This document shows, one piece after another, positions 7,130 through 24,607 of a DNA stretch of 64,000 bases; positions within the stretch are counted from its first letter, which is position 1, and each line of letters opens with the position of its first letter. This DNA is from a virus (taxonomy: Duplodnaviria > Caudoviricetes), in the IMG/VR virus record IMGVR_UViG_3300021093_000004; one strand, given 5' to 3'. A program made the position numbers and the translations under genes. The notes beneath the pieces were generated by a model, which saw nothing but the letters and a program-made list of their open reading frames with translations, ran no database searches and was not told the DNA's origin.

Positions 7130-7246
7130 TCACAACAGGGTACCACCAATCGAATCGATCGAGTTAGTGAGACTTAGTTGAACGAGTGGATTTAACCGAC
7201 TACGACAACCTGCCACAACAGGGCATCACCAACCAGGAGACGACCA

Positions 7247-7657: not shown

Positions 7658-7939
7658 ATGACATTTGCCGAAAAACTCAACCTTTACGGGGTAAGCTTTA
7701 ATTTCACCAAGAAAGGGGTTTAACTCGAAGCCAACCCAGAAGACGAATCCCTGTTTGACGGAGATGGGAACGTAACGGACCCAACTTTTTACGCTTTCTT
7801 GAACGTGCTCGAAGGTATCGTAAGCTACGTTGATTACGACCCTCGTGACAGCAGAGCTGGGCTTGTTGTTTTCGCAGAGACAAATGACGGAAGAGCTTGG
7901 TACGATTTCTCAGGTGAGTCTGCCTGGATCGACGTTTAG
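7658..7939 (+). pseudogene. Paralogue of 14847-15137 with an in-frame TAA at 7721-7723
   Basis: MTFAEKLNLYGVSFNFTKKGV*LEANPEDESLFD...YVDYDPRD...AWYD aligns collinearly with the intact copy. Confidence 0.8.
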
Positions 7940-8083
7940 ATTAACGACAGGGGGGTTAACCGCTGGCGGCTTGGAGCCGATCGGTTAACCCGGTCGGCTC
8001 CTTTAACCGGGTTTTGGTTCCTGCCACATCTGGGTATCGGGGACGGGTGATCCTCGAAGACCTCAGACCAAGGAGACCGACCA

Positions 8084-8272
8084 ATGAAGGCTGTACACTC
8101 TCTCGACCGTTTCGACATTGAGGCCATTAACGAAGGCAAGGCCATTCGCCGCTTCCGGTTCGATTTCGCGATCGAGCATCCCGTGACGCGGGCCAAGGCC
8201 AAGCGGGGGGTGGTTCGCGGCAAGATCGGAGCCGATCGCCGACGCGGGCTGGTGGCCGTTTCGAAGAGCTAA
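8084..8272 (+). CDS. Small basic protein, paralogue of 18778-18966
   Basis: Shared SLDxFDIEA..EGKAIRxFRxDF..TRAKAKR..KIGADR; motif at 8003 and RBS. Confidence 0.75.
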   Translation: MKAVHSLDRFDIEAINEGKAIRRFRFDFAIEHPVTRAKAKRGVVRGKIGADRRRGLVAVSKS

Positions 8273-8529
8273 CACTGTGGCGGCTTGGAGCCGATCGGTA
8301 AACCGATCGGCTCATTCGGGTTTTGGCTCATTTGACCGGGTTTTGGCTCCTGCCACATGAGTTCAGACCAGACCAATCACTGGGCATCGGGATACCACCC
8401 CACCCTCCCTCCTTCGGGAGGGGGCGGCGTCCCGCCCCGGTGTTAACGCGGGACGGGACGCTGCCACACAGAGGCAGAAACGAGTCCGGGAGTTACGGAC
8501 CGCGAGGACAACAACAGGGAGAAAACAGA

Positions 8530-8739
8530 ATGCAGAAAGTTCAATTTAACGAGCAAGATCTACGCCGAGGCAAGTCTTTCGAGGTCGGTAACTATCACGT
8601 TTGGTTTTTTAACAAATTTCGAGCAGACCAAGATTGGAGTAAAAACGAAAACGAGAGTGAGCGTCACTTTTCGACTTTCAGTAAGCTTCAAAGATTTTTG
8701 GAATCGTTGCCTGACGAGACAGACCCGGTGGCCGATTGA
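8530..8739 (+). CDS. Hypothetical protein
   Basis: Motif at 8443 and GGGAG RBS. Confidence 0.6.
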   Translation: MQKVQFNEQDLRRGKSFEVGNYHVWFFNKFRADQDWSKNENESERHFSTFSKLQRFLESLPDETDPVAD

Positions 8740-8986
8740 CGCTTGCCCCCGTCTTTGCTACAAGTGACAAGGAGAGAAGATGAATAATCTGACTCTTAAC
8801 CGACTGACCGCCGTTGCCACAATGTGGTAGGACTAACAAACTCAACGGGGGCTGATTCGAGAGATCAGCAGCGGCAGTCGTTAGTGGGGCCTGCCGCACC
8901 CCGTTTAGCCCCCTTGGGGTGCCGTGGCAATTGCTGCGGCACCCTTTGCTTTTGACGACACCCACTCAATTCACAGAGAAGAACAT

Positions 8987-9757
8987 ATGACCAAACAAGA
9001 GACCACCCTCGATCTGAAGCTGTCTGACGCCGACTCCTCGAAAAAACACATGCTCGACAAACGAGAGCAGCCCGTCACCTTCACCGTGACCCAGACCAAC
9101 TATGTGTCTCGACGCGGTGAGACGAACTTCATCGTCGCCTACACCGGGCCGATGGGTAGCGGCAAGATCACCGTCCCCGGCAAGCCCGACGCCGAGAGCG
9201 ATCTTAACCTCTTGCGCCAGATTGTCGCCGTGAAGAAGGACATCGGCAACAACAAGCTGTTCAGCACGCTGTTGTACATGGAAAACTGGCACTGTGGTTG
9301 CGTCATCCGCCAACGCAAGTGGTCGAACAACGAGGTCGCCCCGGCGTTGCGTGGCGAGGTCCGCCCCGACCCGAAGCCATTGCCCAACGTGGCCCACCGC
9401 CTGCTAAACCATCACGACGCCAAGATGCAAGGCTGGGCAGTATTCAACGGTGGCCCCCACCTGTGCGTCGAGGCACCCAACGGTAACTTCACCATCAGCG
9501 TAAACACGCTGGAAGGGAAGAAGATCACGTTCGCCTTCGTGCCGTATCATGAGAACGGCCCGGCGCAGTGCGTGGACGTTCAGCACCATACCAGCGGGGT
9601 CGATATGAAGAACGGCGACACCGACTGCCCGGTGCAGCAGGTCATCTGCTTTACCGTAGGGAGTGATCTGTACCGCTCCCCGTTGACCGAGGAGAAGGGC
9701 AAGGGCTGCACGCTCATGACCGTGCTACTCAAGCGCAAGGAAGAGGGGGAAGAATAA
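8987..9757 (+). CDS. Hypothetical protein (256 aa)
   Basis: Long ORF with GC3-biased codons; motif at 8796 upstream. Confidence 0.75.
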   Translation: MTKQETTLDLKLSDADSSKKHMLDKREQPVTFTVTQTNYVSRRGETNFIVAYTGPMGSGKITVPGKPDAESDLNLLRQIVAVKKDIGNNKLFSTLLYMENWHCGCVIRQRKWSNNEVAPALRGEVRPDPKPLPNVAHRLLNHHDAKMQGWAVFNGGPHLCVEAPNGNFTISVNTLEGKKITFAFVPYHENGPAQCVDVQHHTSGVDMKNGDTDCPVQQVICFTVGSDLYRSPLTEEKGKGCTLMTVLLKRKEEGEE

Positions 9758-9891
9758 CGAGACCATCCCCAAATTGGAGTGGGGGTGCTGGTCCCACCCC
9801 CCACCCATCCTTAACTGGATCAGACCGCTTGCCACATAGCAGTATCGGAGGAACCAAATGAGCGAATCACCAGTCCTGTGAGGATTTTCAA

Positions 9892-11019
9892 TTGGAACAC
9901 AAACTCAGGATCAAAACGCTCTACGTGCACGTCAAAGAAACGGCGTCTCCACTACTCAAGCACATGCAGCAGGCCCACCCAGACTGCGAAGTGATTCCAG
10001 TCAAAGCGAACACTTACACCTGGGACCCCAAGCACGGCAACGTCAGTGGTGATTACAAGGACCATTTCCGCGAGAAATACAACAAAGCTGCCCTGCTACA
10101 CCGCGCCGCCAAGTGGACACCGGACCCCAACGGCAACTCAACGGATTTTCTACCAGGTCTGATGATGACTCAGGGCTGTGGTTTCGGTTGCACCTACTGC
10201 TACACCGAACGTCATTACGTCAACAATTACCCGAAGCTCTTCGCAGACGTGTACAACATCGTTGGGATGATTCAGTACACGATGGACAACATCAGCAGCC
10301 TACGGGATAAGATGTTGTCGCTCACACACCGAGATTTCGAGAGGTACCGAGACCCTCAGCATGGGGATTGGATTACGTTCGACCTGGGCTGCGATTCAGA
10401 CTGTGTTCTGGACAACCAGTTAACGGCACACGCAGGTTGGCACGGACACGTGGTCGATATCATGAATCGAGTGTCTCAAATCAATGGGGCCAAAACTTCG
10501 TTCGCGACGAAGTCCGCCGCATTTGACGATATCATCGCTGGCACCGTTCGACCCAGCCATCATCGCATCCGCTTGTCACTCATGCCTGAACACCACCGCA
10601 GGGTGCTGGAGATCAGCACCGCACCCACGATAGATCGTTTGTACGCCGTCAACAAGTTGGTGGCACACGGTTTTGAAGTGCACATCAACCTATCGCCCAT
10701 CGTGGTGACCGATAACCACGTCGAAGAATACCGAGATCTTCTCACGTTGATCGACAACACACTGACACCCCAAGCCAAAGCCCAGATGGCTTATGAAGTG
10801 ATCTACCTGACCCACACGGAAAAGCAGCTTTCGATGGTCGAAGCCTACGCACCGAAGGCCAATAACATGATGGTCCATGGGTCACTTCCCTTAGTACCAA
10901 AGCCCAATAAAAAACACGTATTGAGCTACTCATCTCAGGATAAAAAGTGGCTCAAGTCAAAGCTTCGCGACATGGTGGCCGAGATCACCCCGTATTCACG
11001 GATTCGTTACTGCTACTAA
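9892..11019 (+). CDS. Spore photoproduct lyase-family radical SAM protein
   Basis: GCGFGCTYCY (CxxxCxxC), FDLGCDSD, TKS, RIRLSLMP, INLSPIV resemble SplB-family motifs; motif at 9811 upstream. Confidence 0.7.
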   Translation: MEHKLRIKTLYVHVKETASPLLKHMQQAHPDCEVIPVKANTYTWDPKHGNVSGDYKDHFREKYNKAALLHRAAKWTPDPNGNSTDFLPGLMMTQGCGFGCTYCYTERHYVNNYPKLFADVYNIVGMIQYTMDNISSLRDKMLSLTHRDFERYRDPQHGDWITFDLGCDSDCVLDNQLTAHAGWHGHVVDIMNRVSQINGAKTSFATKSAAFDDIIAGTVRPSHHRIRLSLMPEHHRRVLEISTAPTIDRLYAVNKLVAHGFEVHINLSPIVVTDNHVEEYRDLLTLIDNTLTPQAKAQMAYEVIYLTHTEKQLSMVEAYAPKANNMMVHGSLPLVPKPNKKHVLSYSSQDKKWLKSKLRDMVAEITPYSRIRYCY

Positions 11020-11435
11020 AGCTTTGCGACCCTAAAGAAGCGATGGACCAACTACGATTTCCCATCAGAGGGTCTCATATCAGCATTGTTGTTCCTGCAA
11101 TTATCTTGGATAAAACTGAAAGGTAATCTATTCAAAAAAAGTTCAGACACGGAGAGTTTGATTTTAAGTGGATAGTTAGCCCGTTTTAGGAAGTCCAATG
11201 TTAAACGAAGATGACTCGAACCTAGGTTTACGCATCATTACGTTAGACGACGGTGAACTACATTCCGTTTATAAGTTGTCACAAATTCAGAGGGTGAATA
11301 CTCAAACTTGCTCTCCTCCTCAATGGGAAGCAATCGCACAACGAGAGCAGCTTCAGGCATGTCTTGAGTATAAAAAGGAGAAAGACTTCCTTTGGGGAGA
11401 TTCAGTAATTTCTGTGTGATGGTTCCTCGCCATAG

Positions 11436-11519
11436 AGAGCAGAAGTGTGGGCTCCAACCTACGACGACCTACTCGCTAGCGACTGGGAGGTTTTCGTGAG
11501 CTGGGTGGTCAAGAGTTAA
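11436..11519 (+). pseudogene. DUF2829 (Tad2-like) C-terminal remnant
   Basis: EVWAPTYDDLLASDWEV matches WxPxxxDxLAxDW; in-frame TAG 11433 and TAA 11406 upstream; stop inside TTAACC 11516. Confidence 0.45.
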
Positions 11520-11590
11520 CCGGGTCTTTCCCACTGCCACACTGTGGTATCGGGACAATCTAAACCGCTCTGTTGTTTGTGTCATTTCGT

Positions 11591-11621
11591 AGCCCGCAGG
11601 ATTTCCTGCGGGCTTTTTTTT
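11591..11621 (+). terminator. Intrinsic terminator
   Basis: AGCCCGCAGG-ATTT-CCTGCGGGCT followed by a T-run. Confidence 0.85.
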
Positions 11622-11637
11622 GTTTAAGGGTTAAATC

Positions 11638-11853
11638 ATGGCTAAGTACAAGTACAACACTATGCTCGACGTTGCGTTCTCAGTCGAGCATAGTTTTTCA
11701 AACGCAGAATCCTTATTGGATTCGGCGCAAGGTCGTCAAATGGTTCTTGCTGCGGTACTAAAACGCATAGCATTTTTGGTTGAAGAACCAAATGAAGCCT
11801 CAGAAGCTTTTGGAATTTGCGACACATACGACATTCCGGAGGAAAAGTCTTGA
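11638..11853 (+). CDS. Hypothetical protein
   Basis: AAGGG RBS, 71 aa. Confidence 0.6.
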   Translation: MAKYKYNTMLDVAFSVEHSFSNAESLLDSAQGRQMVLAAVLKRIAFLVEEPNEASEAFGICDTYDIPEEKS

Positions 11854-12437
11854 GTAGCGAAAAACCAAGAGCAGTAACCAAGGAGACGACCATGAGTGGC
11901 TATGGGGACGTTTCCAGGCAGGAAATCGTGGGCATACGAGTGTGCTCCTGGAAGAGCAACTAACCGAGTCCCCCGATCCTGCCACAAACGGGCAGAGACG
12001 GACACCAACCACTAACTCCAGGAGAACTGATGGTGAATGCCATATTAATACCATTTATGCGCTACAAGAATGGGAGAAAAGCGGTAAAAAAGGTATTGAA
12101 CCATTCTCATTATTCCAGGATTATGGCTCTTGCGTAGATGCTTCCGCAGCAGAAGGTGCGTTGCTGGAGGCCGAAGACTGCCTCCGCAAGTTGAAAGCAG
12201 CAACTGCTTCGTCGAACGTTGCAGCGGAAACGCGGCAGGGACGGTGGAGCGGGTGCCCGCACACAGTGACCACCTGGCTCTCAGGACCAAAGAGATCACG
12301 AACGTGGACACGGACCATCACAGGCTGATGACGGTCGCGGGGGAGGGGGTGCTGGTCCCACCCCTCCCCCTTTGATTAACCGAATCCCCGATACTCGCCA
12401 CAGGTGGATATCGGGAAACCAATTCGGAGAACCAAGA

Positions 12438-12668
12438 ATGACGACCAGACACCACGTGCTCGCGAAATCGGGGCACAAGGAACAGGCTGCTGACGTGCTC
12501 GTCAGCGACGCCACAGAATTCGGCAAACAACTCGCGAATCTCGCGACTGGCGGATGTACCGTCAGCATCGAGCCAATCGCCAAAGCCACCAAGACCACCC
12601 AAAATGGCGATCCCATTGTCTGGATCACCGAACACGACATGGCCGATGTGTTCTGCTGGCTGCTCTGA
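12438..12668 (+). CDS. Hypothetical protein
   Basis: Motif at 12376 and GGAGA RBS. Confidence 0.7.
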   Translation: MTTRHHVLAKSGHKEQAADVLVSDATEFGKQLANLATGGCTVSIEPIAKATKTTQNGDPIVWITEHDMADVFCWLL

Positions 12669-12738
12669 TTAACCGAATTCCCGATCCTGCCACAAACGGG
12701 TATCGGGGATTTTCGGGACCAGACAGGAGATCAAGACC

Positions 12739-13008
12739 ATGACCACGGAATTCGCCATCGCTATCGCGGGCAAGCAAGACAAGTGGGTTCCGGCCAACGG
12801 CGGAACCGAGACACCCTTCAAGAGCCGATCCGGAATCCGGATGCTCTACTGCTACAACCCGGCACTCGGACGCCACGAATACCTGAATGTGGACACCGAC
12901 ATCATCATGACGGATAGTGAAGTTCGTGCCGCCATCTCTCCCGAAAGAAGACAGAGCGGGGGTAAGTACGAAGAGCCGACGAAATGGGAATCTCGCCAGA
13001 GTCCCTAG
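12739..13008 (+). CDS. Hypothetical protein (conserved small phage family)
   Basis: WVPANGGTETPFKSRSGIRMLYCYNPALGRHEYLNVDTDII; motif at 12669 and AGGAG RBS. Confidence 0.75.
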   Translation: MTTEFAIAIAGKQDKWVPANGGTETPFKSRSGIRMLYCYNPALGRHEYLNVDTDIIMTDSEVRAAISPERRQSGGKYEEPTKWESRQSP

Positions 13009-13083
13009 CCGAGCCCGCTTAACCGGGCTGGCTGGCCTGCCACAAGGAAGTACCGAACCACAAACCATCACGAGGACCACGCG

Positions 13084-13266
13084 ATGCACACTCCGACCCA
13101 ACGCAAGCCCGACCAGAACCGCATTGTCGTCAAGGTCGACCCCACGAAGGTCGCACGAGGCCACCAAGCGCACGTCACCGGGGCTGGCGTCCACCACGAC
13201 AAGCGACTCCGACGGAACCGCACTCGCGGAAACCAAAACCGAGCCGCAATCCACGAGTGGAATTAA
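13084..13266 (+). CDS. Small basic protein (GHQAH...HHDKR)
   Basis: Motif at 13019 and GAGG RBS; stop inside TTAACC 13263; truncated paralogue at 18557-18709. Confidence 0.7.
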   Translation: MHTPTQRKPDQNRIVVKVDPTKVARGHQAHVTGAGVHHDKRLRRNRTRGNQNRAAIHEWN

Positions 13267-13644
13267 CCGGCTCACGAATCCCGCCACAAATGAGTACCGG
13301 GGATTGGCCCCGGTGCGACACCCCAAGGAGACCCGACAGTGAAAAGCTTCCCGGAGTACGTCTACGAACACTACTACCATATAGGATGGGTCGTCAAATA
13401 CGCTTGACGCACTGCTCGTCAAATCTGAGTGCCAATCCCGAAATTTCCCACACCCCCTCTTCCTGCAGGCCAACAAGACGCTGGTCGGCTAGCCGATTTT
13501 CTCGAACCCCCGGTGCTTGCCACAAAAAGGATCGGGGATTTTCGAAACGGAAACCCGAGACCAGGAGAAGGGGCCGATTAACCGCCTCTTTCTCCCTGCC
13601 ACAAAAGGGCATCGGGGATAGGACCAAAACCAAGGAGACACGAG

Positions 13645-13881
13645 ATGGACAAGCTTAAAGTGCGTGTTGCTCTCACGAGCGGGATCGGCATTCTGATCGA
13701 AGTACACGGCAACGAAACCGCGTTGGTTCTAGTAGAAGGGCAACAGGACGAGCTGGCAGCACGGCGAGCAGCATACGAGGCGATGTTCGGAGAGCCAACG
13801 CACGAAGAGGAACGCGCAACCGACGCGACGATCCGCGAATTCACGACGATCCGCGATGTTCATCGCATCAGTGCGTCTTAG
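13645..13881 (+). CDS. Hypothetical protein
   Basis: Motif at 13578 and AAGGAG RBS. Confidence 0.7.
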   Translation: MDKLKVRVALTSGIGILIEVHGNETALVLVEGQQDELAARRAAYEAMFGEPTHEEERATDATIREFTTIRDVHRISAS

Positions 13882-14077
13882 ACGACGAAGCATCGGCGAG
13901 CCTACTTCGCTTAACCGAGTCCCTTAACCGAGCCCCCGATGCTTGTCAAGGCATCGGGCCTCTGATCGATGCGAGATTGACCAAACCCCGGTGTTAACAC
14001 CAAAGAGCGGTTTAACCTCAACGCCCAGGCTGCCACAGAGGGGCAGAGACGGGCCAAACACTCTTAGGAGAGAAGCG

Positions 14078-14356
14078 ATGACCTTTGCAGAAACAACCTT
14101 TGCAGAAACACTAAACCAAAACGACTGCTCTTGTGGAGTCGAGGACGGAGTGTACTTCTTCCTCAGCGAAGGAGGAGCCAAGTCACCGACCGAAGTCGGT
14201 GACTACCGCCTCGCAGCAAGCTCGAGCTGCCCACCACCGTGGTGCTGGTCAGTGACGGAGACACAGTGGGGCCTCGTCGGCTTCGAGAAAAACACAGACA
14301 AGCGTGTCTGTGCTGTCTACGACGCCCAGACACGGCTCTGGGTCGACCTGAACTAA
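14078..14356 (+). CDS. Hypothetical protein
   Basis: Motif at 14012 and AGGAG RBS; 15-nt duplication gives MTFAETTFAET. Confidence 0.65.
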   Translation: MTFAETTFAETLNQNDCSCGVEDGVYFFLSEGGAKSPTEVGDYRLAASSSCPPPWCWSVTETQWGLVGFEKNTDKRVCAVYDAQTRLWVDLN

Positions 14357-14387
14357 CGTCACACCACAGAGACTACCACAGAGACTA

Positions 14388-14418
14388 CCCCGCACTTCGA
14401 AAGGAGTGCGGGGTTTTT
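14388..14418 (+). terminator. Intrinsic terminator
   Basis: CCCCGCACT-TCGAAAGG-AGTGCGGGG-TTTTT. Confidence 0.8.
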
Positions 14419-14437
14419 AGTTTGTATGTGGTAACAA

Positions 14438-14632
14438 TCACACACTTCCATCTCGTTCTCTGGCACTTCCCGCCGCAGTACGTGCGGCTGGAAGTGTTTT
14501 GTACGCTCTGCCACCTTGTTCCCACTTAGGGTTACGATACTCCGGTTTGAAGTACAACCCAGTTGAAATTCGGCGAACCTTGAAAAGCGTGTCACCTTGA
14601 AACGTACCACCTTGTGTTCGACGCAGGTTCAT
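14438..14632 (-). CDS. Hypothetical protein, paralogue of 4820-5053
   Basis: Shared 30-aa block; motif at 14726 upstream. Confidence 0.6.
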   Translation of the reverse strand: MNLRRTQGGTFQGDTLFKVRRISTGLYFKPEYRNPKWEQGGRAYKTLPAARTAAGSARERDGSV

Positions 14633-14846
14633 GAGTTTTATTCCTTTTGGTGGTAAGCGGCGTACAGAAGACTCACGGGCGTTTTCCTTGTTTGGGTTTT
14701 TAGGGGTTGGTTCGTCCTACCACTTTGTGGCAGTGGCGGTTCGTCGGTTAAGAGGGACGAGGACGAAGAGTAAGGGTTAACGAACCCTTTTTGTCTGCCA
14801 CAGGTGGGTGTTGAGACAACCACCCACCTTAAAAGGGAGAGAGACC

Positions 14847-15137
14847 TTGAAACTTGCAGAAAAGCTGAACCTTTACGGAGTGTTCTTCAACCTCACTAAA
14901 GAGGAGGGGGTGAGCCTCGAGTCTTGCCCAGAAGACGACTCGCTTTTCGATTCGGAAGGAAACGTGGTAGACAAGGCTTTCGAAACCTTCTTGGACGAGC
15001 TTGACACCTACAAAGCTTACGTGGACTACGACCCAAGAGACAGAAGGTGTGGGCTTGTCGTCTACGTAGAGACGGCCACGGAAAGAGCTTGGTACGACGA
15101 GTCTGGTGCGAGTGCCTGGGACGAGTGCGGGCTGTAA
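14847..15137 (+). CDS. Acidic hypothetical protein, intact paralogue of 7658-7939
   Basis: Motif at 14777 and GGGAG RBS before TTG. Confidence 0.7.
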   Translation: MKLAEKLNLYGVFFNLTKEEGVSLESCPEDDSLFDSEGNVVDKAFETFLDELDTYKAYVDYDPRDRRCGLVVYVETATERAWYDESGASAWDECGL

Positions 15138-15547
15138 GACAGTGAGACGAACAGCTGTAACACTGACGGCAGCTGCACCGTACTGTACTTCACAGAACGA
15201 GCCAGTGACTAGACACGCGGGAACGAGCGGACCGGGCAACCCCCGGTCCGCCGATCACCGCCTTTAACCGGCTGATCGCCGCCGCCACACGGTGGTATAG
15301 ACGAGACACACTCGTATGCCCACGATTTCCTGCCTGGAAACGTCAAAACAGGCCAACGCTCGCGGAGCTACAAACACTAGGCGGCGAACTCACCGTCGGG
15401 CGGTGGGACATCATACACGAAGCTTTAGAGGAAGAGATCGTCCTTTTGCAGGTCAGTGATTGGAACAAAGTATCCAGTGGTGGGAGCTTGCGGGCTTGCT
15501 GCGGGAGGGGGGATGGCATACCCAATCCCCCCGCCACACGCCGCATG

Positions 15548-15967
15548 TCACATATCGTTTTCAGCGAACACCCACACCCCATCGGGCAGATCGGTGTCGC
15601 ACTCATCGCCACACAAATTCGCGAGCCCCCCGAGGCTTCGCAGAATGCTTTCCTCTGGCCAAAACCCAGAGGCGACACGGTAGTACGTGTCAAAATCGTA
15701 GCCTTCGACAGAATACCTTGGTAAGCCAAAAGAACGGCGGTTGGCGATGACGATACTGACAGCCAGACCGCTTTTCTCAGCAGCGAACAGGCGTAATGCC
15801 TGTTTTGCCAGTTCCTCGGTGGCGAAATTCGCCACGTTTGCGTTCTCCGGGGCATTTCCGTTGACGTCGAACACTACCGACCAGCATTGTGTCAAAACAA
15901 CCGTCTTTGTGCTTTCGTTGAGGCTGTGGCCACAACGAAGGTCGTCTGCGTCGAAAATCGGTGTCAT
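15548..15967 (-). CDS. Hypothetical protein
   Basis: Motif at 16024, leader hairpin and AGGAG RBS. Confidence 0.6.
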   Translation of the reverse strand: MTPIFDADDLRCGHSLNESTKTVVLTQCWSVVFDVNGNAPENANVANFATEELAKQALRLFAAEKSGLAVSIVIANRRSFGLPRYSVEGYDFDTYYRVASGFWPEESILRSLGGLANLCGDECDTDLPDGVWVFAENDM

Positions 15968-16143
15968 TGGTTCTCCTGGTTTGGGTTTTGGTCGTCTCGG
16001 GATCACTCGTCCCGATACGCACCTGTGGCAGGAGCTAACACTTGGTTAACGAAAGCCGACCGAGGATGGCGAGGATTAACCGAGACCGACGGGCTGCCAC
16101 AGAAGGGTGTGACCCAACCCAGCACCAACCAGGAGACCAACCG

Positions 16144-16425
16144 ATGCTCACGATCAGCCGAATAACACTCTGGGAGATTTTGTCCGGTGACGGCGACGCC
16201 GCCGATCAAGAGACGGTTAACGCGGTAGAAGCGCTCGACCTCAAGCTCGTCGTCGCGGACTTCGAGCTAAGCGCGCACCACATCGGCGGCGACTACGTCG
16301 TGGGTGTTGTCGATGATGTGCTCGTAGCCCAAAAAGCGGGCTACAGGATCGTCACGTGGTACGGGCCGAAGACCGAGGTTCTCGTTGTCGGGGTCCGAGA
16401 GGGCGACCTTAACCTCGTGGACTGA
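16144..16425 (+). CDS. Acidic hypothetical protein, paralogue of 22646-22939
   Basis: Shared MLTIS...HIGGDxVVG.VDxVL.AQKxGYxIVTWYGP..EVLV.GVREGDLNLV. Confidence 0.8.
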   Translation: MLTISRITLWEILSGDGDAADQETVNAVEALDLKLVVADFELSAHHIGGDYVVGVVDDVLVAQKAGYRIVTWYGPKTEVLVVGVREGDLNLVD

Positions 16426-16845
16426 ACTGCCACAAAGGATCATCGGGGGGTCAGCCACAAACGTAAAAGATGACGTTGTGTTGGCGATGCTGCGTTTGAT
16501 TTGGCTGACCCTCGCCTCACGACCGCAGACGGTATTTCCAGACAGGAAACACACCCCCTCTTCCTGCACGTACGTACGAGAGTCCGGGTCAAGTAATTCT
16601 TGGTGTATTAACTGATCGCCGACGGCACATGAAACAGCCGGACGAGGAGAACCCTTGCCCGGCTGTTTCTAGGAATTGACGGAAAGTTTTTTGACGCAGA
16701 TAGAGACGGTCAGCCGCATGTCCCCGAACAACTGATCCACTGCCCGGAGATTAACCGGACGATCCTACCTGCCACAAAGAGGTAGCACCGTATCTCTCCT
16801 GTGTGTGACAAAGGGACTGTGGCAAAAGGAGGGGGAGGGGTTAAC

Positions 16846-17163
16846 CTACTCCCGCCCCCAAAGGTATCGGTCGTAGAAATCTGCGAATTCGCCGAATGAC
16901 GAGAACGTCCAGTGCTCGTCGTAGCCCGCGTCTATTTCTTCATACAGCTGGCATTCGAAGTGGAGTTTGTCGTTCTCGACGTAGATCTTGCCGAGCACCC
17001 CGCTTCCGGGGTTTCGGTCCCCGTCGCTGGGCGCGTCATACGGTGCACTGCTGTTGACGGTGAACCGTCCACCGTGCTCTTCGTACCAATAACCATTATT
17101 CTCAAAGTATGCTTTCAGGTCTGCAGTCCAGCCGGTCTCGCGGTCCCAGTATTGCGTCGTCAT
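16846..17163 (-). CDS. Acidic aromatic-rich hypothetical protein
   Basis: Motif at 17228 and AGGAG RBS before ATG 17163. Confidence 0.7.
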   Translation of the reverse strand: MTTQYWDRETGWTADLKAYFENNGYWYEEHGGRFTVNSSAPYDAPSDGDRNPGSGVLGKIYVENDKLHFECQLYEEIDAGYDEHWTFSSFGEFADFYDRYLWGRE

Positions 17164-17568
17164 TTGCGGTTCTCCTGATTGTCTCGGGTTCGGTCCTGTC
17201 TCGGGATCACTCGTCCCGATACGCACCTGTGGCAGAAGGAAAAGGGCGGTTAACCGAACGAGCTAAACCGGTGTTCGCCGTGCAGGCCAGCCACCACAAC
17301 AGAGCCGTTGTCCAGCTTGACCGTAAGCCAGCCCCAAACACCGGCACTCTTTTCGACGTCAATGCCAGGACCTTCCCAGGGGACATAGTGGTCATCCAGC
17401 ATGTCGGCGATCTGAGCCCTCAGCACAGCGTGCTCAGACGCATGATCAACGGCAACCTTGTAGTAATCGTGTCCCATCTTGCGGTTCTCCTGATTGTCTC
17501 GGGTTCGGTCCTGTCTCGGGATCACTCGTCCCGATACGCACCTGTGGCAGAAGGAAAAGGGCGGTTAA
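17164..17568. repeat. Two identical 90-bp direct repeats (17164-17253, 17479-17568) flanking one gene
   Basis: RBS + leader + motif; both copies end at GGTTAA; period 315 bp. Confidence 0.9.
17250..17477 (-). CDS. Hypothetical protein between the 90-bp repeats
   Basis: Motif at 17543 and RBS; MGHDYYKVAVDH... Confidence 0.7.
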   Translation of the reverse strand: MGHDYYKVAVDHASEHAVLRAQIADMLDDHYVPWEGPGIDVEKSAGVWGWLTVKLDNGSVVVAGLHGEHRFSSFG

Positions 17569-17811
17569 TCCGCCCCCGCCCTCTTCGCTGCGGTTAACCG
17601 GGGGTCTTCCGCTGCCACATTTTGGTACGATGGGGCCAAGACACTCAGGAGACAAGACAATGCCACGAGTGACCACCGCAGCGGGCTTGACATTGTACTG
17701 CCCGCCACGGTCCTGCACCACGTACGAGGGCCGTTAGGAAAAGATATTACGATACACCCACAGGAGAAACAGAATTCACCCGTTTTATGGCCCTGCCACA
17801 GAAATTAACGA

Positions 17812-18189
17812 ATGGTTCGACATTTGACACTTTCGGAGAAAATAGTTATGGCCCGCAACCACGTGAATCCAAAAAGCATCGCGCAGATGATCACCGAGGA
17901 TCCCGACGTTCCAGGATCGCCAAGTGTGAATGAATTCAGTCGCCGAATGCCCGAACTCGTCCACGTGTCGTTGGAAATGAACACGCTCAACAAGGACGGC
18001 AACACCGTTACCCTATACTTCGACGGTGAGCCGACCCTCGAACAGGTCCGGGAAGCGTGCCAGACCGAACTCGGCAGCTTACCCCTTGGCGTGGACACCA
18101 AAGACCAGTACTTTGGTTTCGAAGAGCACCCGACACCCGTCAGCGAGCGGGCTGGGCTTCGCCGCTACGAGGTTTACCCGACTGTTTAG
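17812..18189 (+). CDS. Hypothetical protein
   Basis: Variant motif at 17775; start may be ATG 17848 after GGAGA. Confidence 0.6.
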   Translation: MVRHLTLSEKIVMARNHVNPKSIAQMITEDPDVPGSPSVNEFSRRMPELVHVSLEMNTLNKDGNTVTLYFDGEPTLEQVREACQTELGSLPLGVDTKDQYFGFEEHPTPVSERAGLRRYEVYPTV

Positions 18190-18410
18190 TTAAATGGATC
18201 ATTATCTAACACGCCACGAGCGAAGTCTAAGGCTTTCTGATCGTCATCTTCGCCACGGGCGTAGGGGTCATGGAGGATGATGACCACTGTCCCTCCCCAT
18301 ACTTCCATGTGGCTTCCGCTGAAAGCGCGACCACGAACTAGCTTCTTGTTCTCGACATACTCGTCGTAGAAGAGATGAAACCAGTCGTGTACCTGCTGCC
18401 AAGGAAGCAC
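18186..18410 (-). CDS. Hypothetical protein or gene fragment
   Basis: 74-aa ORF with no clear leader. Confidence 0.4.
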   Translation of the reverse strand: MLPWQQVHDWFHLFYDEYVENKKLVRGRAFSGSHMEVWGGTVVIILHDPYARGEDDDQKALDFARGVLDNDPFN

Positions 18411-18556
18411 GATTCGAGGCGCATGCCGGGCGATGGCTGTTGGCCGATAAATGGGCCATTCTTGCCATTGGCTTCAGTGCTGACGATATGGCCGAAGCAC
18501 GCGACGATATCAAAAGAAGGACCTAACCGGTGGTGGCTGACTGCCACATAAGAGTA

Positions 18557-18709
18557 CAAGACCGCATTGTCATCCGTGTGGCCGATATCAAGGTCGCACG
18601 GGGTCACCAAGCCCACATCACGGGGACGGGTGTCCACCACGACAAGCGGACCAAGCGGAACCGCACACGCGGAAACCAGAACCGAGCCGCCATCCGCGAG
18701 TGGTGTTAA
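18557..18709 (+). pseudogene. 5'-truncated paralogue of 13084-13266 fused directly to motif 18523
   Basis: RIVIRVADIKVARGHQAHITGTGVHHDKRTKRNRTRGNQNRAAIREWC; no ATG or RBS; stop inside TTAACC 18706. Confidence 0.7.
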
Positions 18710-18777
18710 CCGGCTGAGCGGCTTTGCCACATAGTGGTATCGGGGATTCAAGACCAATCAAGACTAGGAGACCAACA

Positions 18778-18966
18778 ATGAAAGCGAGCTACTCTCTCGA
18801 CCAGTTTGACATTGAGGCCGCTGCCGAAGGCAAGGCCATCCGCCAGTTTCGGCACGATTTTTCGGTGGCGCGCCCCACGACGCGGGCCAAGGCCAAGCGG
18901 CGAGTCGTTCGCAGCAAGATCGGGGCTGACCGCCATCGCGGGCTGACCCTCGTCAAAGCTGGCTAG
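18778..18966 (+). CDS. Small basic protein, paralogue of 8084-8272
   Basis: Motif at 18706 and AGGAG RBS. Confidence 0.75.
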   Translation: MKASYSLDQFDIEAAAEGKAIRQFRHDFSVARPTTRAKAKRRVVRSKIGADRHRGLTLVKAG

Positions 18967-18976
18967 GCAAACAAGC

Positions 18977-19007
18977 GGGCCGGTCGGAAGTCCCGACCGG
19001 CCCCTCT
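18977..19007 (+). terminator. GC hairpin, terminator-like
   Basis: GGGCCGGTCGG / CCGACCGGCCC then CTCTTT and TTAACC. Confidence 0.6.
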
Positions 19008-19049
19008 TTAACCGCGATCGCAGGGGGCAGCTTTTCCAGAGAGGAAAGC

Positions 19050-19349
19050 CTACTCCTCGTCACCGTAGTAGGAGTAGTCGGCTACGTCAGAGTAAACAGT
19101 TGCTGCTTTCAACTTGCGGAGGCAGTCTTCGGCCTCCAGCAACGCACGCCGTCGTTCGTTCACCAAAATCTCGACGAAATCCACAGCGTCGTCCTTGGTT
19201 GTCAAGCGAGCCAAGGTGAGTCCGAAGCTCTCGGGACGGTAGTGGGCTTTCCAATGTAGTTCGTAGTCGTGCTTGACCTCACCACCGTCAGAGAACTCGA
19301 AGACGTGTGTTTCCGGTGCGTACCCGCCCCTGTCACCATTTCAGCCCAT
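19050..19349 (-). pseudogene. Hypothetical gene with in-frame TGA at codon 3
   Basis: MG*NGDRGGYAPETHVFEF...ALLEAEDCLRKLKAATVYSDVADYSYYGDEE; shares 50 nt with 12157-12206. Confidence 0.55.
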
Positions 19350-19358
19350 GTCAGAATT

Positions 19359-19508
19359 TCAACCTGACACCATCTTTTCGAGCATGGCCACGATTGGTGC
19401 GAGCATCTCACCTAGACTGTCATCCTGCCCATCGATCAGACCGTTAAGAGTCTGGATATGTTCGATCAGCTCTTGTTTGGGTGCGTCGGACTCGACCTTA
19501 GTGCTCAT
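19359..19508 (-). CDS. Hypothetical 49-aa protein
   Basis: Motif at 19551 and GAGG RBS. Confidence 0.55.
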   Translation of the reverse strand: MSTKVESDAPKQELIEHIQTLNGLIDGQDDSLGEMLAPIVAMLEKMVSG

Positions 19509-19619
19509 GGGTATCCTCGCTGGTTGGTTGGTTGGTTCGTCCTACCACTTTGTGGCAACAGCGGTCAGTCGGTTAAGAGAGGGAGGGGTGAGACCAGCAC
19601 CCCTCCCAGGGCCAAGAGC

Positions 19620-19940
19620 TCACAGCGGTTCTGGCTGCTCTTCGAGTAGTTCACACTCGGTCACGAGTGCAAGCAGGTCACTCTCGTTGTTGACGCGGAC
19701 GCGGACGGCGTAGTCTTCGTGGCCTGGACCTACGTTCCGCAGGAAGCTGTCTAGGACCTTCGCGTGTCTTTCCACGAAGTCTAGGCCCCAGCCTCGTCCG
19801 TCTTGGGCGTCGCAGCAGTCGAGGAACACTTCCACCGGGTAGTTGGTGAACCGTTGTTCGTCTTCGGGGGTGTGGTTCGGGAAGTCAGGTCCGCACCACC
19901 AAACTTCGTTTCCGTGCGTGAACAGGCCGTAAGTTACCAC
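19620..19940 (-). CDS. Hypothetical acidic protein
   Basis: AGGAG RBS before GTG 19940. Confidence 0.65.
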   Translation of the reverse strand: MVTYGLFTHGNEVWWCGPDFPNHTPEDEQRFTNYPVEVFLDCCDAQDGRGWGLDFVERHAKVLDSFLRNVGPGHEDYAVRVRVNNESDLLALVTECELLEEQPEPL

Positions 19941-19966
19941 TGTTGGTCTCCTGAAAGGTGGTAGAG

Positions 19967-20038
19967 TGGCTTGCGGTTGTCGCTCGCCTTCTCTTTTTTG
20001 TGGCTTGCGGTTGTCGCTCGCCTTCTCTTTTTGTGGCA
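19967..20038. repeat. About 34-bp tandem duplication joined at TGTGGC
   Basis: TGGCTTGCGGTTGTCGCTCGCCTTCTCTTTTT(T)G x2. Confidence 0.85.
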
Positions 20039-20316
20039 AGCGTTTTTGTGTTGTGAACCAAGACCGACCGTCTGACACAGGGAGTTATCGGGAGTTGGTA
20101 GTACGGTGCCTAAAAGTGGCAACAATCTACTGTTAAACTCTGCTATCGCGTCCTAGACGACGGAGCATCGGGCGGCTGGTAGGTTGAGCCCCCTTTTTTT
20201 CCGACCGAGACCAAGACCGACCGAGACCGAGATTAACCAAGACCGACCGACTGACACAGGGAGTTATCGGGACGAGTGATCCCGAGACGACCAAAACCCA
20301 AACCAGGAGAGAGACC

Positions 20317-20502
20317 ATGGACAAGAAAGTGCTGATCGCCCTCGTTGAAGAAATCGTCACCGCTGTTGCCGCCAAGCACAGCCTCGAAGACGTCGAAGCC
20401 CGCGCGATGGTCGGCATCGCCCTCAAGAAGAACCGAACCGCCTTCGAGAACGCGGTGGTTCTCCCGACTCTCACGCTGGCCACGACGCCCGTTGTGGCCT
20501 AG
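20317..20502 (+). CDS. Hypothetical protein
   Basis: Motif at 20233, leader hairpin and AGGAG RBS. Confidence 0.7.
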   Translation: MDKKVLIALVEEIVTAVAAKHSLEDVEARAMVGIALKKNRTAFENAVVLPTLTLATTPVVA

Positions 20503-21015
20503 GATTCCTGGTTCGGGGGAGGGAGTGCTGGTCCCACCCCTCCCCCATTTTCTCTTGATTAACCGACCCCTCGATCCCGCCACAGGTGGGTATCGGGGAT
20601 CGCTTGCCACACAGTGGCATCGAGGATTTTTGGCCTGAAAATGCAGAGGTTTAATCACCGGAAGATACAGCCGTCAAATGGCTGCTTCGTGCTACAAACA
20701 ACTGCTGGCGGGCATGGTTGACACCAACACCTCCCAGATCTCTTGTAAACTAACTTCTTTTTTATATGGTTTGCCTCACGACCGCAGACGGTATTTCCAG
20801 ACAGGAAACACACCCCCTCTTCCTGCACGTACGTACGAGAGTCCGGCTGATCGCCGACGGCATACGAAAACAGCCGGACGAGGAGAACCCTTGCCCGGCT
20901 GTTTTCGTATGCGAACTGGATCTGTGGAGCCGTCTGCTGGTGAAATCGACGACGGCACACGAAGCAGCCGGACGAGGAGAACCCTTGCCCGGCTGCTTTC
21001 GGATCTGTGGCCTTT

Positions 21016-21414
21016 TCAGTTTCGTTCTTTGTCAATGATGATTCGGATTTCAGATTTTGTCGTGACGCCAAGCTCTTTGATGAGATCGGCAACGGTTGCG
21101 GTTTTGGCGTCGTCGTGCCGGATTTTCACAACGAAGGCAAAATCGACTATTTCTCCGTCGAGAATGATGGCTTCGAATGGGATTTCGTGAATGTCCGTGT
21201 CGGCATTGATTGCCGCAATTGTTTTGATGTGTTCTTCAAGTGTTTCGAAAAGTTCCTGGGCGACTTCTTCGAGTGGATGATCTTCTGGATTGCATCGTCC
21301 GTTGATCCAGAGTTCGTGGCTGTTCCACGAATACTCAATCCGTCTCCCATTGATTTTGCCAGCGATTCTTCCCGATTCACTGTGCCGTCGTGAAATGTCA
21401 ACGCGATTTTTCAT
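21016..21414 (-). CDS. Hypothetical protein
   Basis: Motif at 21471 and AGGAG RBS before ATG 21414. Confidence 0.7.
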   Translation of the reverse strand: MKNRVDISRRHSESGRIAGKINGRRIEYSWNSHELWINGRCNPEDHPLEEVAQELFETLEEHIKTIAAINADTDIHEIPFEAIILDGEIVDFAFVVKIRHDDAKTATVADLIKELGVTTKSEIRIIIDKERN

Positions 21415-21436
21415 TTCGTCTCCTGGTTTGGGTGTC

Positions 21437-21568
21437 GGTCGTCTCGGGATCACTCGTCCCGATAACTCCCTGTGTCAGAAGGAAAAAGGCGGTTAATTTT
21501 CCGGTCGTCTCGGGATCACTCGTCCCGATAACTCCCTGTGTCAGAAGGAAAAAGGCGGTTAATTTTCC
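21437..21568. repeat. Perfect 66-bp tandem duplication of a complete motif plus leader hairpin
   Basis: 21437-21502 = 21503-21568. Confidence 0.9.
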
Positions 21569-22332
21569 GGTTCACAGTCTCGAAGCCATCGCAGAAAAGC
21601 TTTGCGACATCTGCTTCTGGCCGTGGTCTGGGAAATGGCGTTCCCATTCTGTTTACCGACTGTTCTTTGTTGCCACAAAATGGCAGAGAGAAACCAAACC
21701 CAGGAGAATGCTCCCGTGCAAAAAGCAGAACTGGAAAACGGAGTAGCTCTGGCAAAGTCGCTCGTCCCGGAGGCCAAAGCCCTCATCGAAGCGGTGGTGA
21801 ACCTGCCACCGGAGACCAAGTATGAGCAAGCCAAACCACACCTAGCCAGGTTAGAGCGATTCGGCAGCAAGGCTGGCGAGCTGCCCACCACCATTCTCAG
21901 AGAGTACATCGAGCGGGACGTCTGGTTGTTAGAACACGGCATGCACCGACTGCAGGACTCTCACCAACGAGACGTCGAGTCGAGGAGTAGCTCTTGGTCC
22001 GGGGAGGGGTGTTGGTCCCGCCCCCGCCCTCTTCGCTGCGGTTAACCGGGGAATCGCCAGTTAGCGGAGATTGACTGATGCTCTCATTGCACTGTATGTG
22101 GTAACACGCTCTTTCTCAAGATCAAGCAAACGCTTGCAAAATGGGAGATCGACCATCACTGGAACGTCGGGATCTATCTTTATCTCCTTGACTTATTGTG
22201 TTGTTCATCCCTTCCTGCTGTTTGTTACAGCGGCTAGCCCTCGCGTTAATATCGGGAGGGCTGGCCGCTGCCCCCTCTCGCGAGGGGGCAGCTTTTCCAG
22301 AAAGGAAAGCCTAGGCGGGGGAAAGAGGAGGG

Positions 22333-22596
22333 TTAACTCTCCTCGTCGTAATCCGCCCAAGGAGCGAAAGCCCCCTCGTCATCGGAGGCAACCCAGCCGT
22401 CAATCCGAACGTGAGTCGATTCGCCGTTCTCGGAACCCAACCGCACCCGCACATCGCGAGTGTAGGCGGTGTCCTTTGGGTTGGCGATGGAGAGTTGGAC
22501 CGGCAAATCCGGTCCGTTCAACAGTTCTCGTGCGAGTTCGTGGCTGGTCATGCTTCCCCCCGGTAAAGCTTGTTGATGGTTCGGTTCACGTTGCAT
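22333..22596 (-). CDS. Hypothetical protein
   Basis: Motif at 22637 and AGGA RBS. Confidence 0.6.
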   Translation of the reverse strand: MQREPNHQQALPGGSMTSHELARELLNGPDLPVQLSIANPKDTAYTRDVRVRLGSENGESTHVRIDGWVASDDEGAFAPWADYDEES

Positions 22597-22645
22597 GGTC
22601 TTGGTCCTCTTGTGTCCTGAATGCCCGGTACTCCCTTGTGGCAGT

Positions 22646-22939
22646 TCACGCCACGAGGTTAAGGTCGCCCTCTCGAACCCCAAGGACGAGGACTTCGGCA
22701 GCCGGACCGTACCACGTGACGATGCTGTAGCCCTCTTTTTGGGCTGCGAGCACTTGATCGACGATCCCCACAACGTCGTCACCGCCAATGTGGTTCTGGG
22801 TCATGAATCCGAAGACAATGGCCTTGATGTCGAGGGCATTCACCGCGTCCATCGTGGCTTGATCGACGCCCACGTCGTCGTCGTCGTCGTCAACGCCACT
22901 CAACACCGCCCAGAGTTTCTTTTGGCTGATCGTGAGCAT
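22646..22939 (-). CDS. Acidic hypothetical protein, paralogue of 16144-16425
   Basis: Motif at 22999 and AGGAG RBS; sequence similarity. Confidence 0.8.
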   Translation of the reverse strand: MLTISQKKLWAVLSGVDDDDDDVGVDQATMDAVNALDIKAIVFGFMTQNHIGGDDVVGIVDQVLAAQKEGYSIVTWYGPAAEVLVLGVREGDLNLVA

Positions 22940-23299
22940 TGGTCTCTCCTGGTTTGGGTTTCGGTCCTGTCTCGGGATCACTCGTCCCGATACGCACCTG
23001 TGGCAGAAGGAAAAGGGCGGTTAACTGGCGATTCCCCGGTTAACCGGCGAACAGCCGCCGCCACATCGCCGATGCACGAAGCAGAACGAGCAACCGACGA
23101 GACAATTAACCAATACACCACAGTCCGCCGAGTCCGCTGCATCGGCTGGTAATCGTCTCTCCTGGTCCGGGGAGGGGTGCTGGTCCCACCCCTCCCCCTC
23201 TGTTAACTATGGAGAGTCGTTTGCCACATTTGTCCTGCTCGGACATTGACTTCATCGATGTTATAAACTCGATAGCCGCCCTTTGTGGGAGTTAAAGCG

Positions 23300-23641
23300 A
23301 TGGCAAAGCGAACGATTGAACTCGATAAGGCTGAATGGCGAGCAGCCTGCATGCGTGACGCGGACAAGTGCAGCGAGCTGTCCGAGGCAATGGATATGTC
23401 ACGCGAGGACGGCGACGACCCCAGCGATTGGAACGTTACAAAGTTGCTGCGGACGGCGTGCGAGTGTTTGGAGTTTTTTAACAGTGGCACTGCAGCCGAT
23501 GGACTGCGACGCGGCTGCAAGTCTACCATTCGCCAGCACCGCGAACTGATCGCGTTCATTCGCAAGTGGACAGCACTACTCAACGAACGCAAGCAATGGC
23601 TGCATCGCTCACCATCAATTAGCCGGGAACCAAAATGGTGA
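23300..23641 (+). CDS. Hypothetical protein
   Basis: Motif at 23203 and GGGAG RBS. Confidence 0.6.
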   Translation: MAKRTIELDKAEWRAACMRDADKCSELSEAMDMSREDGDDPSDWNVTKLLRTACECLEFFNSGTAADGLRRGCKSTIRQHRELIAFIRKWTALLNERKQWLHRSPSISREPKW

Positions 23642-23735
23642 CGACCGCAGACGGCATTTCCAGACAGGAAACACACCCGAAAGCAGCCGGGCAAGGGTTC
23701 TCCTCGTCCGGCTGCTTCGTGTGCCGTCGTCGATT

Positions 23736-24077
23736 TCACCAGAAATCGGCTTTGTGTTCGTTCCAGTCGTCGACGGTCGCGATGATGATGGGCGTCGGGA
23801 TCGGAAAGCCCTCTTTGTCGAAATCGATCAGCGGTTGCGGCTCATCGCTGAACACCGTGTCTCGTGGCACAACTCGCAGCTTGGCAACGCAGTTTTTCCA
23901 TGAGTCAGGGTCTGTGAGCCAGACAGCAGCGTTTTCGTCTTCCCAGTCGTCGACGTCGGCAACGTCAATCTCGACGGCTTGTCCTTCTTGTGCTTCCGGG
24001 ATGCTGTCACAGCATCCTTCAAGAAACAAATAAGCGGTGTCGCGGTCTTCAACGAGCAGTTTTCCGGCGTGTCGCAT
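23736..24077 (-). CDS. Acidic hypothetical protein
   Basis: Motif at 24122 and AGGAG RBS. Confidence 0.7.
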   Translation of the reverse strand: MRHAGKLLVEDRDTAYLFLEGCCDSIPEAQEGQAVEIDVADVDDWEDENAAVWLTDPDSWKNCVAKLRVVPRDTVFSDEPQPLIDFDKEGFPIPTPIIIATVDDWNEHKADFW

Positions 24078-24158
24078 TGCGGTCTCCTGGTTTTGGTTTC
24101 GAAATCTCCCCGATTCCCTGTTGTGGCAGGGAATCGGGGGGCGGTCAAATCGGGTGCG

Positions 24159-24356
24159 TCACCATTTCATGAAGATGGTCACGAGCTTTTCATCGTTTTC
24201 GGTCAGAGCATCGGAGTCAATGTCTTCGAGATTGGTTCCCGGTGGCTCGATGACAAATCGCTCTGCACTGCCGGAGCAGCCATTCACGACGAGGACTTCC
24301 GCGTCCCCGGCTGGCGGAAGTGAGGCAAAGTGTTGTGCGGCTTCTGCGTTGGTCAT
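24159..24356 (-). CDS. Acidic hypothetical protein
   Basis: Motif at 24412 and AAGGAG RBS. Confidence 0.7.
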   Translation of the reverse strand: MTNAEAAQHFASLPPAGDAEVLVVNGCSGSAERFVIEPPGTNLEDIDSDALTENDEKLVTIFMKW

Positions 24357-24490
24357 TCTGGTCTTTCTCCTTGAGGTTTTCTTCGAGGATCACCCGTCCC
24401 CGATGCCCTTTTGTGGCAGGCACCGGGGGTTCGGTCAATTCTGAACTTCGCCGCGTCTCGCGTCGGTTCTGCTCCACGCTCGGCGAGGAT

Positions 24491-24524
<34 letters not shown>

Positions 24525-24607
24525 AAGAGGGTCGTATTAACCGGGGGTCTCCTCCTGCCACATCTGGGTATCGGGAAGACCATTCAAAACCGAAAGGACC
24601 AGGACCA

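Follow-up and report, generated by a model that had tools for sequence, protein, structure and literature searches.

Repeated putative promoter-leader modules as likely recombination substrates in the small-gene array of an uncultivated lake-water phage

Introduction

Hyperplastic regions of T4-type phages contain orphan genes that are flanked by PeSL (promoter-early stem-loop) cassettes (PMC2839356, PMC4122927), and copies of these cassettes recombine without a dedicated recombinase, producing mini-circles as well as insertions and deletions (indels) and swaps (Arbiol et al. 2010, PMC2839356; Comeau et al. 2014, PMC4122927). PeSL cassettes are the closest described system to the locus considered here, a family of repeated blocks of up to 90 nt lying directly upstream of small genes in a 64,000-nt stretch of DNA from an uncultivated phage (Duplodnaviria; Caudoviricetes; IMG/VR record IMGVR_UViG_3300021093_000004), which is referred to below as the window. 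Homology between the block copies stops at the sequence TTAA, which a first-pass annotation of the window had taken for a preferred crossover point. The analysis presented here favours a different explanation, namely that the blocks are likely to be promoter-leader modules in a phage small-gene array and to recombine as PeSL cassettes do.

Two further systems are relevant to the interpretation of these blocks. Transposons of the piggyBac type carry out TTAA-specific cut-and-paste, and a TTAA at the edge of a repeated unit brings them to mind. At the level of the promoter, the extracytoplasmic function (ECF) sigma factor HrpL recognises the hrp box, which reads GGAACC-N15/16-CCACNNA (PMC6647874, PMC8809351) and whose arrangement is similar to that of the boxes described below.

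Results

The repeats run from a conserved box to the base before the start codon

The two full copies of the block, R1 and R2 (Table 1), are identical over 90 nt (100% identity) with a start-to-start spacing of 315 nt, and the third copy is identical to both over 65–66 nt (22960–23024), as the first-pass annotation had described. The bases that follow TTAA in the three copies (CCGAAC, TCCGCC and CTGGCG) are also those it had listed, and the divergence is immediate. A 23-nt core of the block has five matches, compared with 0.00 expected.

The coding strand at the repeats is the minus strand, on which GGTTAA reads TTAACC, and the repeat begins precisely with the first T of TTAACC and ends at the base directly before the start codon. 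Each copy consists, on the minus strand, of TTAACC, 13 nt, CTGCCACA, 5 nt, GTATCGGGA, a short hairpin, the Shine-Dalgarno (SD) sequence AGGAGA, 6–7 nt and the start codon. The first box of R2 is located in the loop of a terminator-like hairpin (17557–17577). R1 precedes gene A and R2 precedes gene B, for which no relative was found among 5.8 billion protein clusters. An origin of the 315-bp unit by tandem gene duplication was considered and rejected, as genes A and B are unrelated (E 0.35).

The motif precedes small genes throughout a 25-kb array

The block is one instance of a more general tripartite motif, TTAACC-N13-CTGCCACA-N5-GTATCGGGGA (boxes 1, 2 and 3), followed by a leader of 25–65 nt, AGGAGA and a start codon. 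A strict pattern, TTAAC-N14-18-GCCACA, has 40 matches in the window, 39 of which lie in 1–24600, compared with 0.18 expected; a relaxed pattern finds 49 sites on both strands, and about 45 motif copies are present in 1–24600. At 36 of the 49 relaxed sites, an SD sequence and an open reading frame (ORF) of 30 aa or more are found downstream on the same strand, no more than 150 nt away. The spacer length is constant in 40 of the 49 (AACC-N15-CCAC), and the information content is 1.2–2.2 bits in the boxes and close to 0 bits over the 25 nt upstream of box 1. Positions that were not imposed by the search are conserved as well: TTAAC is followed by C and G, CCACA is preceded by CTG, and GTATCGGG lies downstream. 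GCCACA and ATCGGG, which the first-pass annotation had treated as separate junctions, turn out to be boxes 2 and 3 of this same motif. Box 1 itself varies, and is TTGACC or TTTACC, lacking TTAA, in five copies in the window.

The genes behind the motif are small, mostly orphan and found on both strands, each with its own copy. The 35 cassette proteins that were scanned yielded only five Pfam families, with one protein each, and two radical-SAM families among them probably sit on a single cassette protein. In four cases the upstream gene ends within an intact promoter, its stop codon being the TAA of box 1 (T-TAA-CC; 5822, 6026, 13263 and 17253), and two more genes stop inside degenerate boxes at 22041 and 22336, giving six in all. 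Several other boxes are preceded by TGA, reading TGATTAACC. At least seven of ten polyG/polyC stem-loops lie 3–12 nt upstream of a box 1, and many copies of the motif, R1 included, have no such hairpin. A hairpin with TTAA in its loop was examined as a general trait of the motif and rejected, being found in only 7 of 49 copies compared with 3.5 in controls (P 0.04).

The same architecture is found outside the window. In a diverged metagenome contig, WBZN01000308.1, which was the one true relative among 40 mostly chance matches in a metagenome scan, 13 copies are located before small genes and a helicase-like gene; box 1 is TTAAC or TTGAC, and five copies have no TTAA. Cassette proteins common to the window and this contig are 57–67% identical. 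Scans of viral_contigs with the motif and with one cassette protein family found nothing, and the phage collection gave no nucleotide match. Because the architecture has been kept in such a diverged relative, the motif is taken to be old and under constraint and not a recently spread repeat.

These features are consistent with the motif being a promoter. Its geometry resembles that of ECF-type sigma promoters such as the hrp box, it contains no TATAAT-like hexamer, and canonical sigma-70 promoters occur in the array no more often than expected (6 sites compared with 7.3). It has to be considered, however, whether the motif might instead be a repeated operator for a phage regulator, or an element for RNA processing or stability, the edges of which would bound the homology equally well. 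In support of this, a hairpin found in two leader families has box 3 as its 5' half. On the other hand, the fixed 15-nt spacing between AACC and CCAC is that of sigma-70-family promoters (PMC6647874), genes on both strands each have their own copy while no other promoter type is enriched in the array, the leader hairpin is no more stable than shuffled sequence (z −0.4), and Rfam gave no match in 1–25500. An operator or RNA element is therefore regarded as unlikely.

The array also differs in composition from the rest of the window, as the GC content at third codon positions (GC3) is 67% in array genes and 40% elsewhere. The GC content is 55% for the array and 56% for the array genes in 1–25200, compared with 45% for large genes in the remainder of the window (25201–64000), and WBZN01000308.1 has 50–53% GC. 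The contrast could reflect a foreign origin of the cassettes or a recombination-linked GC bias.

Table 1. Positions of the repeat copies, genes and related features (window coordinates unless a contig is named)
Feature	Position	Strand	Remarks
Cassette array, about 45 promoter-leader-small-gene units	609..24600	both	extends past the left edge of the window
47-nt promoter copies, identical	6763..6809 and 24531..24577	+	homology extends 6 nt upstream of TTAACC
Leader-family member	15968..16049	−	different spacer
24-nt AT-rich insert	16588..16611	+	within a non-coding element whose twin at 20846 lacks it
Gene A	16846..17163	−	105 aa
Promoter-leader copy R1	17164..17253	−	box 1 TTAACC at 17253–17248, boxes 2 and 3, 5' hairpin, SD AGGAGA; precedes gene A
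Gene B	17250..17477	−	75-aa orphan; stop codon TAA falls within the TTAACC box of R1
315-bp unit (gene B and one repeat copy)	17254..17568	−	missing from contig L050
Promoter-leader copy R2	17479..17568	−	100% identical to R1; precedes gene B
Leader-family member	20233..20316	+	inverted orientation; core type 2 (CTGACACA)
Two tandem 66-nt promoter copies, same leader family	21415..21571	−	duplication at 21436–21571; one copy missing in L064
Third copy	22940..23024	−	initial 66 nt as in R1/R2, then another leader variant; precedes the 97-aa gene 22646–22939
437-aa protein	L041:1463-2776	−	about 5–6.5 kb past the right end of the window; conserved on many 300–400-kb phage contigs

Homology ends are distributed over the whole motif

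The proposal that TTAA is a preferred crossover point was assessed on exact repeats of 18 nt or longer in the array, which gave 138 ends, 85 of them near a promoter. Three of the 138 are flush with TTAA, compared with 0.5 expected at random positions (P ~0.016). The enrichment at repeat ends that follows from the proposal is thus nominally present, although it comes from two repeat families only, and the peaks lie elsewhere: among the 85 promoter-associated ends, 12 fall at the start of box 2, 14 at box 3 and 12 at the end of the leader hairpin, and only three at box 1.

Comparison of closely related promoters, defined by near-identical spacers, leads to the same picture. They form seven lineages, in two of which homology stops flush at TTAACC, while in the other five it runs 1, 3, 3, 6 and at least 13 nt beyond; the 47-nt pair that was already known to pass TTAA by 6 nt does so. 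The 66-nt tandem duplication has an ACCG microhomology at its junction, which is 9 nt upstream of TTAA. The 24-nt insert had been correctly described as absent from the twin element and as ending in TTAA. It has TTAA only at its right end and GTCCGG at its left side, is without terminal inverted repeats, and sits between two structured parts of an ORF-less element that carries a 74-nt segment. What lies upstream of box 1 differs from copy to copy, and can be gene B's C-terminus, half of a terminator hairpin or an unrelated spacer; homology between the copies stops at TTAA because nothing upstream of box 1 is shared. A homology-dependent process, be it duplication through unequal exchange or gene conversion, can yield identity only as far as this edge. 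Given the results for repeat ends, lineages, the tandem junction, the insert and the variant boxes, TTAA is not a demonstrated crossover signal; it is the start of box 1 of the putative promoter. Recombination driven by shared sequence, which had been raised as a caveat in the first-pass annotation, is the better reading of the two.

A dedicated site-specific recombinase or a TTAA-targeting transposase, using TTAA or TTAACC as its core site in an integron- or piggyBac-like cut-and-paste reaction, would account for the three flush ends and their nominally significant excess over random positions. It would also fit a 25-nt inverted copy (22039–22063 and 23022–23046) that ends inside TTAA, between TTA and A, and the six genes that stop inside T-TAA-CC, since cleavage at the box would carry entire reading frames along. 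This is nevertheless very improbable. No integrase, serine recombinase, transposase or other site-specific recombinase was found among the approximately 65 window ORFs scanned (precomputed Pfam included), in agreement with what had been noted before; copies of the motif are present on both strands and invariably face a gene start; homology in five of the seven lineages extends beyond TTAA and the tandem junction is displaced from it by 9 nt; the insert has neither a left-hand TTAA nor terminal inverted repeats; and box 1 is TTGACC or TTTACC in five window copies and varies in the relative as well, the flush ends being confined to two families.

The copies form a mosaic family with variants in the population

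R1, R2 and the third copy belong to a leader family of seven members (16049−, 17253−, 17568−, 20233+, 21496−, 21562− and 23024−). The family is mosaic, its members combining spacers of four types, cores of two types and leaders of two or three types, and the copy at 23024 is a chimera, in which 66 nt of R1/R2 are followed by the leader variant of 16049, 20233 and 21496. Paralogous cassettes have different neighbours in the window and in WBZN01000308.1.

A natural variant of the repeat pair is found in the JGI contig Ga0194120_10022865 (L050), from another lake sample, which corresponds to positions 13572–20076 of the window minus exactly 315 bp and has one repeat copy and no gene B. The earlier suggestion that the 90-nt repeats bracket a 315-bp unit open to gain and loss is borne out by this contig. 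Any frame of the deleted span from 17164–17478 to 17254–17568 is equally valid. Elsewhere, L050 differs from the window by one single-nucleotide polymorphism (SNP) and two 4-nt indels and, because of these differences, is considered a distinct haplotype. The 315-bp variant is probably real, and represents either a deletion or the pre-insertion state. Two further variants were found in an ENA assembly, where L064 lacks one of the 66-nt tandem promoter copies and L054 lacks one copy of a 59-nt tandem repeat (6542–6659). The natural variant supports the view that the repeats serve as handles for cassette gain and loss.

In favour of an assembly artefact, affecting either the repeats or the 315-bp variant, it may be said that Logan contigs (k = 31) break at the repeats and that all variants seen are collapsed forms. 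Such an artefact is very unlikely, because every fetched JGI or ENA locus spanning 17164–17568 except L050 has the two-copy form and is identical base for base to the window, 18 index contigs carry gene B with no short stray gene-B contig in the index, and the SNP and indels of L050 mark it as another haplotype. The first-pass annotation had named artefactual repeats as a finding that would overturn its proposal, and these loci speak against them. In Logan contigs from four lake runs no joint skipping the 315 bp is listed, which says nothing either way given that these contigs break at repeats. In X24, a run of low depth, joints at repeats that skip 4259 and 94 nt are perhaps chimeric paths and were not used.

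Several other differences between samples were observed. In L050, the 4-nt deletion (19549–19552) destroys the CCACA of promoter 19576 (−), and a 4-nt TGGT expansion is located 28 nt away. In runs X3 and X22, position 24591 is joined to 13683, which places the leader of promoter 24537 onto the body of gene 13645–13881; the joint passes through 35 other letters that contain an SD sequence, an ATG and a new N-terminus, and represents either a recombinant or a paralogous cassette located elsewhere in the genome or population. The Logan contigs of the four lake runs also contain 19 clustered SNPs in gene A (16896–17092), the remaining array being nearly invariant. This form is a minority in runs X3 and X20 and the sole form in X22 and X24, and is either a second allele or a gene-conversion patch.

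A candidate sigma-like protein is encoded beyond the window

The 437-aa protein encoded on locus L041, past the right end of the window (Table 1), gave only a Zn ribbon in Pfam, PHROGs, PDB sequence, PDB profile and Atlas searches. Orthologues in related phages are 73–80% identical to it. In its AlphaFold model (pLDDT, the predicted local distance difference test score, 77), the N-terminal helices and the C-terminal 80 residues align with sigma factors using VIA-align (Z 6–8), and sigma factors make up approximately half of the best 50 structural matches. These include sigmaE region 4 bound to −35 DNA, full-length SigL, AlgU, SigH, WhiG and sigma-28. The protein has a sigma2-like and a sigma4-like part, together with an insert made up of a Zn ribbon and an alpha/beta region. 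A Foldseek search with the model gave no match with E below 0.1. A motif of the array type, TTGACC-N14-TTGCCACA, is present in the 115-bp region upstream of the gene. The protein is a reasonable candidate, but no more than a candidate, for a phage-encoded sigma factor with a −35-reading domain. Its divergent neighbour, of 262 aa, has no family match.

Other features of the array and the window

The promoters at 16409 and 20559 have no ORF behind them, and are followed instead by an identical 74-nt segment (100%) and a strong terminator hairpin. The ORF-less elements extend over 16450–16672 and 20709–20908, with a partial copy at 23641–23751 (−), and have no Rfam match; they are candidates for small RNAs of the phage.

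The few cassette genes with a family match encode a DMP19-like protein (672–1166), a spore-photoproduct-lyase-like radical SAM enzyme (9892–11019) and a DUF6011 protein (24608–25075). DMP19 is a DNA-mimic protein. The radical SAM gene contains five clustered SNPs (10834–10852) and is called as two pieces in the sample contig L055.

Outside the array, four to five tandem 21-nt repeats (ATTTGATTGGGTCCCCCCGGA) at 31757–31860 are non-coding and iteron-like, and could be binding sites for a regulator or replication initiator. Six to seven tandem 15-nt repeats at 54621–54740 lie within a 446-aa ORF (54155–55495), in which they encode a pentapeptide repeat. The low-GC part also encodes a NucS/EndoMS-like nuclease (55707–56336) and a 63-aa CsrA-like protein (approximately 50795–50986), according to precomputed Pfam results for L041.

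Discussion

The explanation proposed here is that nearly every small gene in the 25-kb array of this lake-water phage would have its own copy of one promoter type, and that the 90-nt block would be a promoter and 5' leader module belonging to the seven-member family. The three identical copies may be the product of a recent duplication, or of gene conversion among adjacent members of the family, in which case the conversion tract would be limited to pre-existing homology, from box 1 to the base before the start codon. As the modules are long enough (90 nt) and identical, they could act as substrates for homologous recombination or replication slippage, by which cassettes would be added, removed and reshuffled. 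The promoter may be read by the sigma-like protein encoded 5–6.5 kb beyond the right end of the window. The position and orientation of the motif before genes, its conservation in the relative, the mosaic leader family and the natural 315-bp variant are direct observations. Promoter activity, the sigma factor that would read the promoter and the pathway by which the modules would recombine are inferred.

Several points weigh against this explanation. The promoter is a prediction from sequence. The structural matches of the 437-aa protein to sigma factors are middling, with Z below 8. All three population variants have one copy fewer, a form that an assembler can also yield at low coverage, and L050, itself a short contig, has its ends at other short repeats. 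The excess of ends flush with TTAA, in addition, leaves room for a small preference for the box edge.

A more speculative possibility, to which we assign very little weight, is that TTAACC has a dual role, as the −35 element of a phage-specific ECF-like promoter and as the preferred exchange point of a cassette-mobilising activity, whether a dedicated enzyme or mini-circle integration. If this were true, promoter-leader-ORF units would be transferred exactly as wholes, the following box providing the stop codon, and the array would constitute a promoter-borne, integron-like gene-capture system in jumbo phages. A high recombination rate might then explain the GC3 difference (67% compared with 40%) through GC-biased gene conversion.

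Returning to the promoter-leader modules, their significance lies first in that an appealing idea about TTAA crossover, which the results do not support, is replaced by a testable one. Gene turnover in the 25-kb accessory block of an uncultivated phage would run on repeated promoter-leader modules in a PeSL-like manner, which the lake-metagenome variant supports. The combination of a non-housekeeping, ECF-like promoter and a nearby sigma-like protein would also be a candidate pairing of promoter and sigma factor in a large clade of giant phages. Finally, the sharp contrast in codon composition that sets the array apart from the remainder of the window may bear on the source of accessory genes.

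Comparison with known systems

Among the systems with which the array can be compared, piggyBac-type transposons share with it a TTAA at the edge of a mobile-looking unit. They differ in that the 24-nt insert has TTAA on one side only and no terminal inverted repeats, that no transposase family is matched among the window ORFs scanned, and that TTAA is not kept in all copies of box 1.

The likeness to integrons is more extensive, as both are arrays in which short cassettes, mostly orphan, share a repeated boundary element, which here sometimes supplies a stop codon. In contrast to integron cassettes, which are promoterless and lie in one orientation, the cassettes here have their own putative promoters and occur in both orientations. 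The repeated element is located upstream of the gene and is not an attC-like imperfect palindrome (a stem around TTAA is found in only 7 of 49 copies), and there is no IntI-type integrase among the window ORFs scanned, nor next to the array.

With the hrp box, the motif shares an AACC core at −35, a 15-nt spacer and a CCAC core at −10 (TTAACC-N15-CCACA here). It differs in beginning with TT instead of GG, in the conserved CTG before CCAC, in the third box GTATCGGGGA and in its phage setting, and the likeness is one of sequence. Promoters of the HrpL type depend for transcription on a cognate group-4 sigma factor, for which the 437-aa protein would be the candidate here.

PeSL cassettes resemble the array most closely. 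In both, many small orphan genes are each preceded by a copy of a conserved promoter, here a predicted one, to which a polyG/polyC stem-loop terminator is often joined, no dedicated recombinase would be required, and recombination between copies gives rise to indels and replacements, for which L050, the mosaic leader family and the shuffled paralogous cassettes are the counterparts here. The 315-bp unit between 90-nt repeats is, judged from sequence alone, also the type of substrate that yields PeSL mini-circles. The promoter itself differs, as that of PeSL cassettes is an early promoter matching the host sigma-70 consensus, whereas that of the array would be TTAACC-N13-CTGCCACA-N5-GTATCGGGGA. 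The module here further includes the complete 5' leader and SD sequence, and the array it forms is very large, extending over at least 25 kb with approximately 45 copies and a GC3 of 67% compared with 40% elsewhere.

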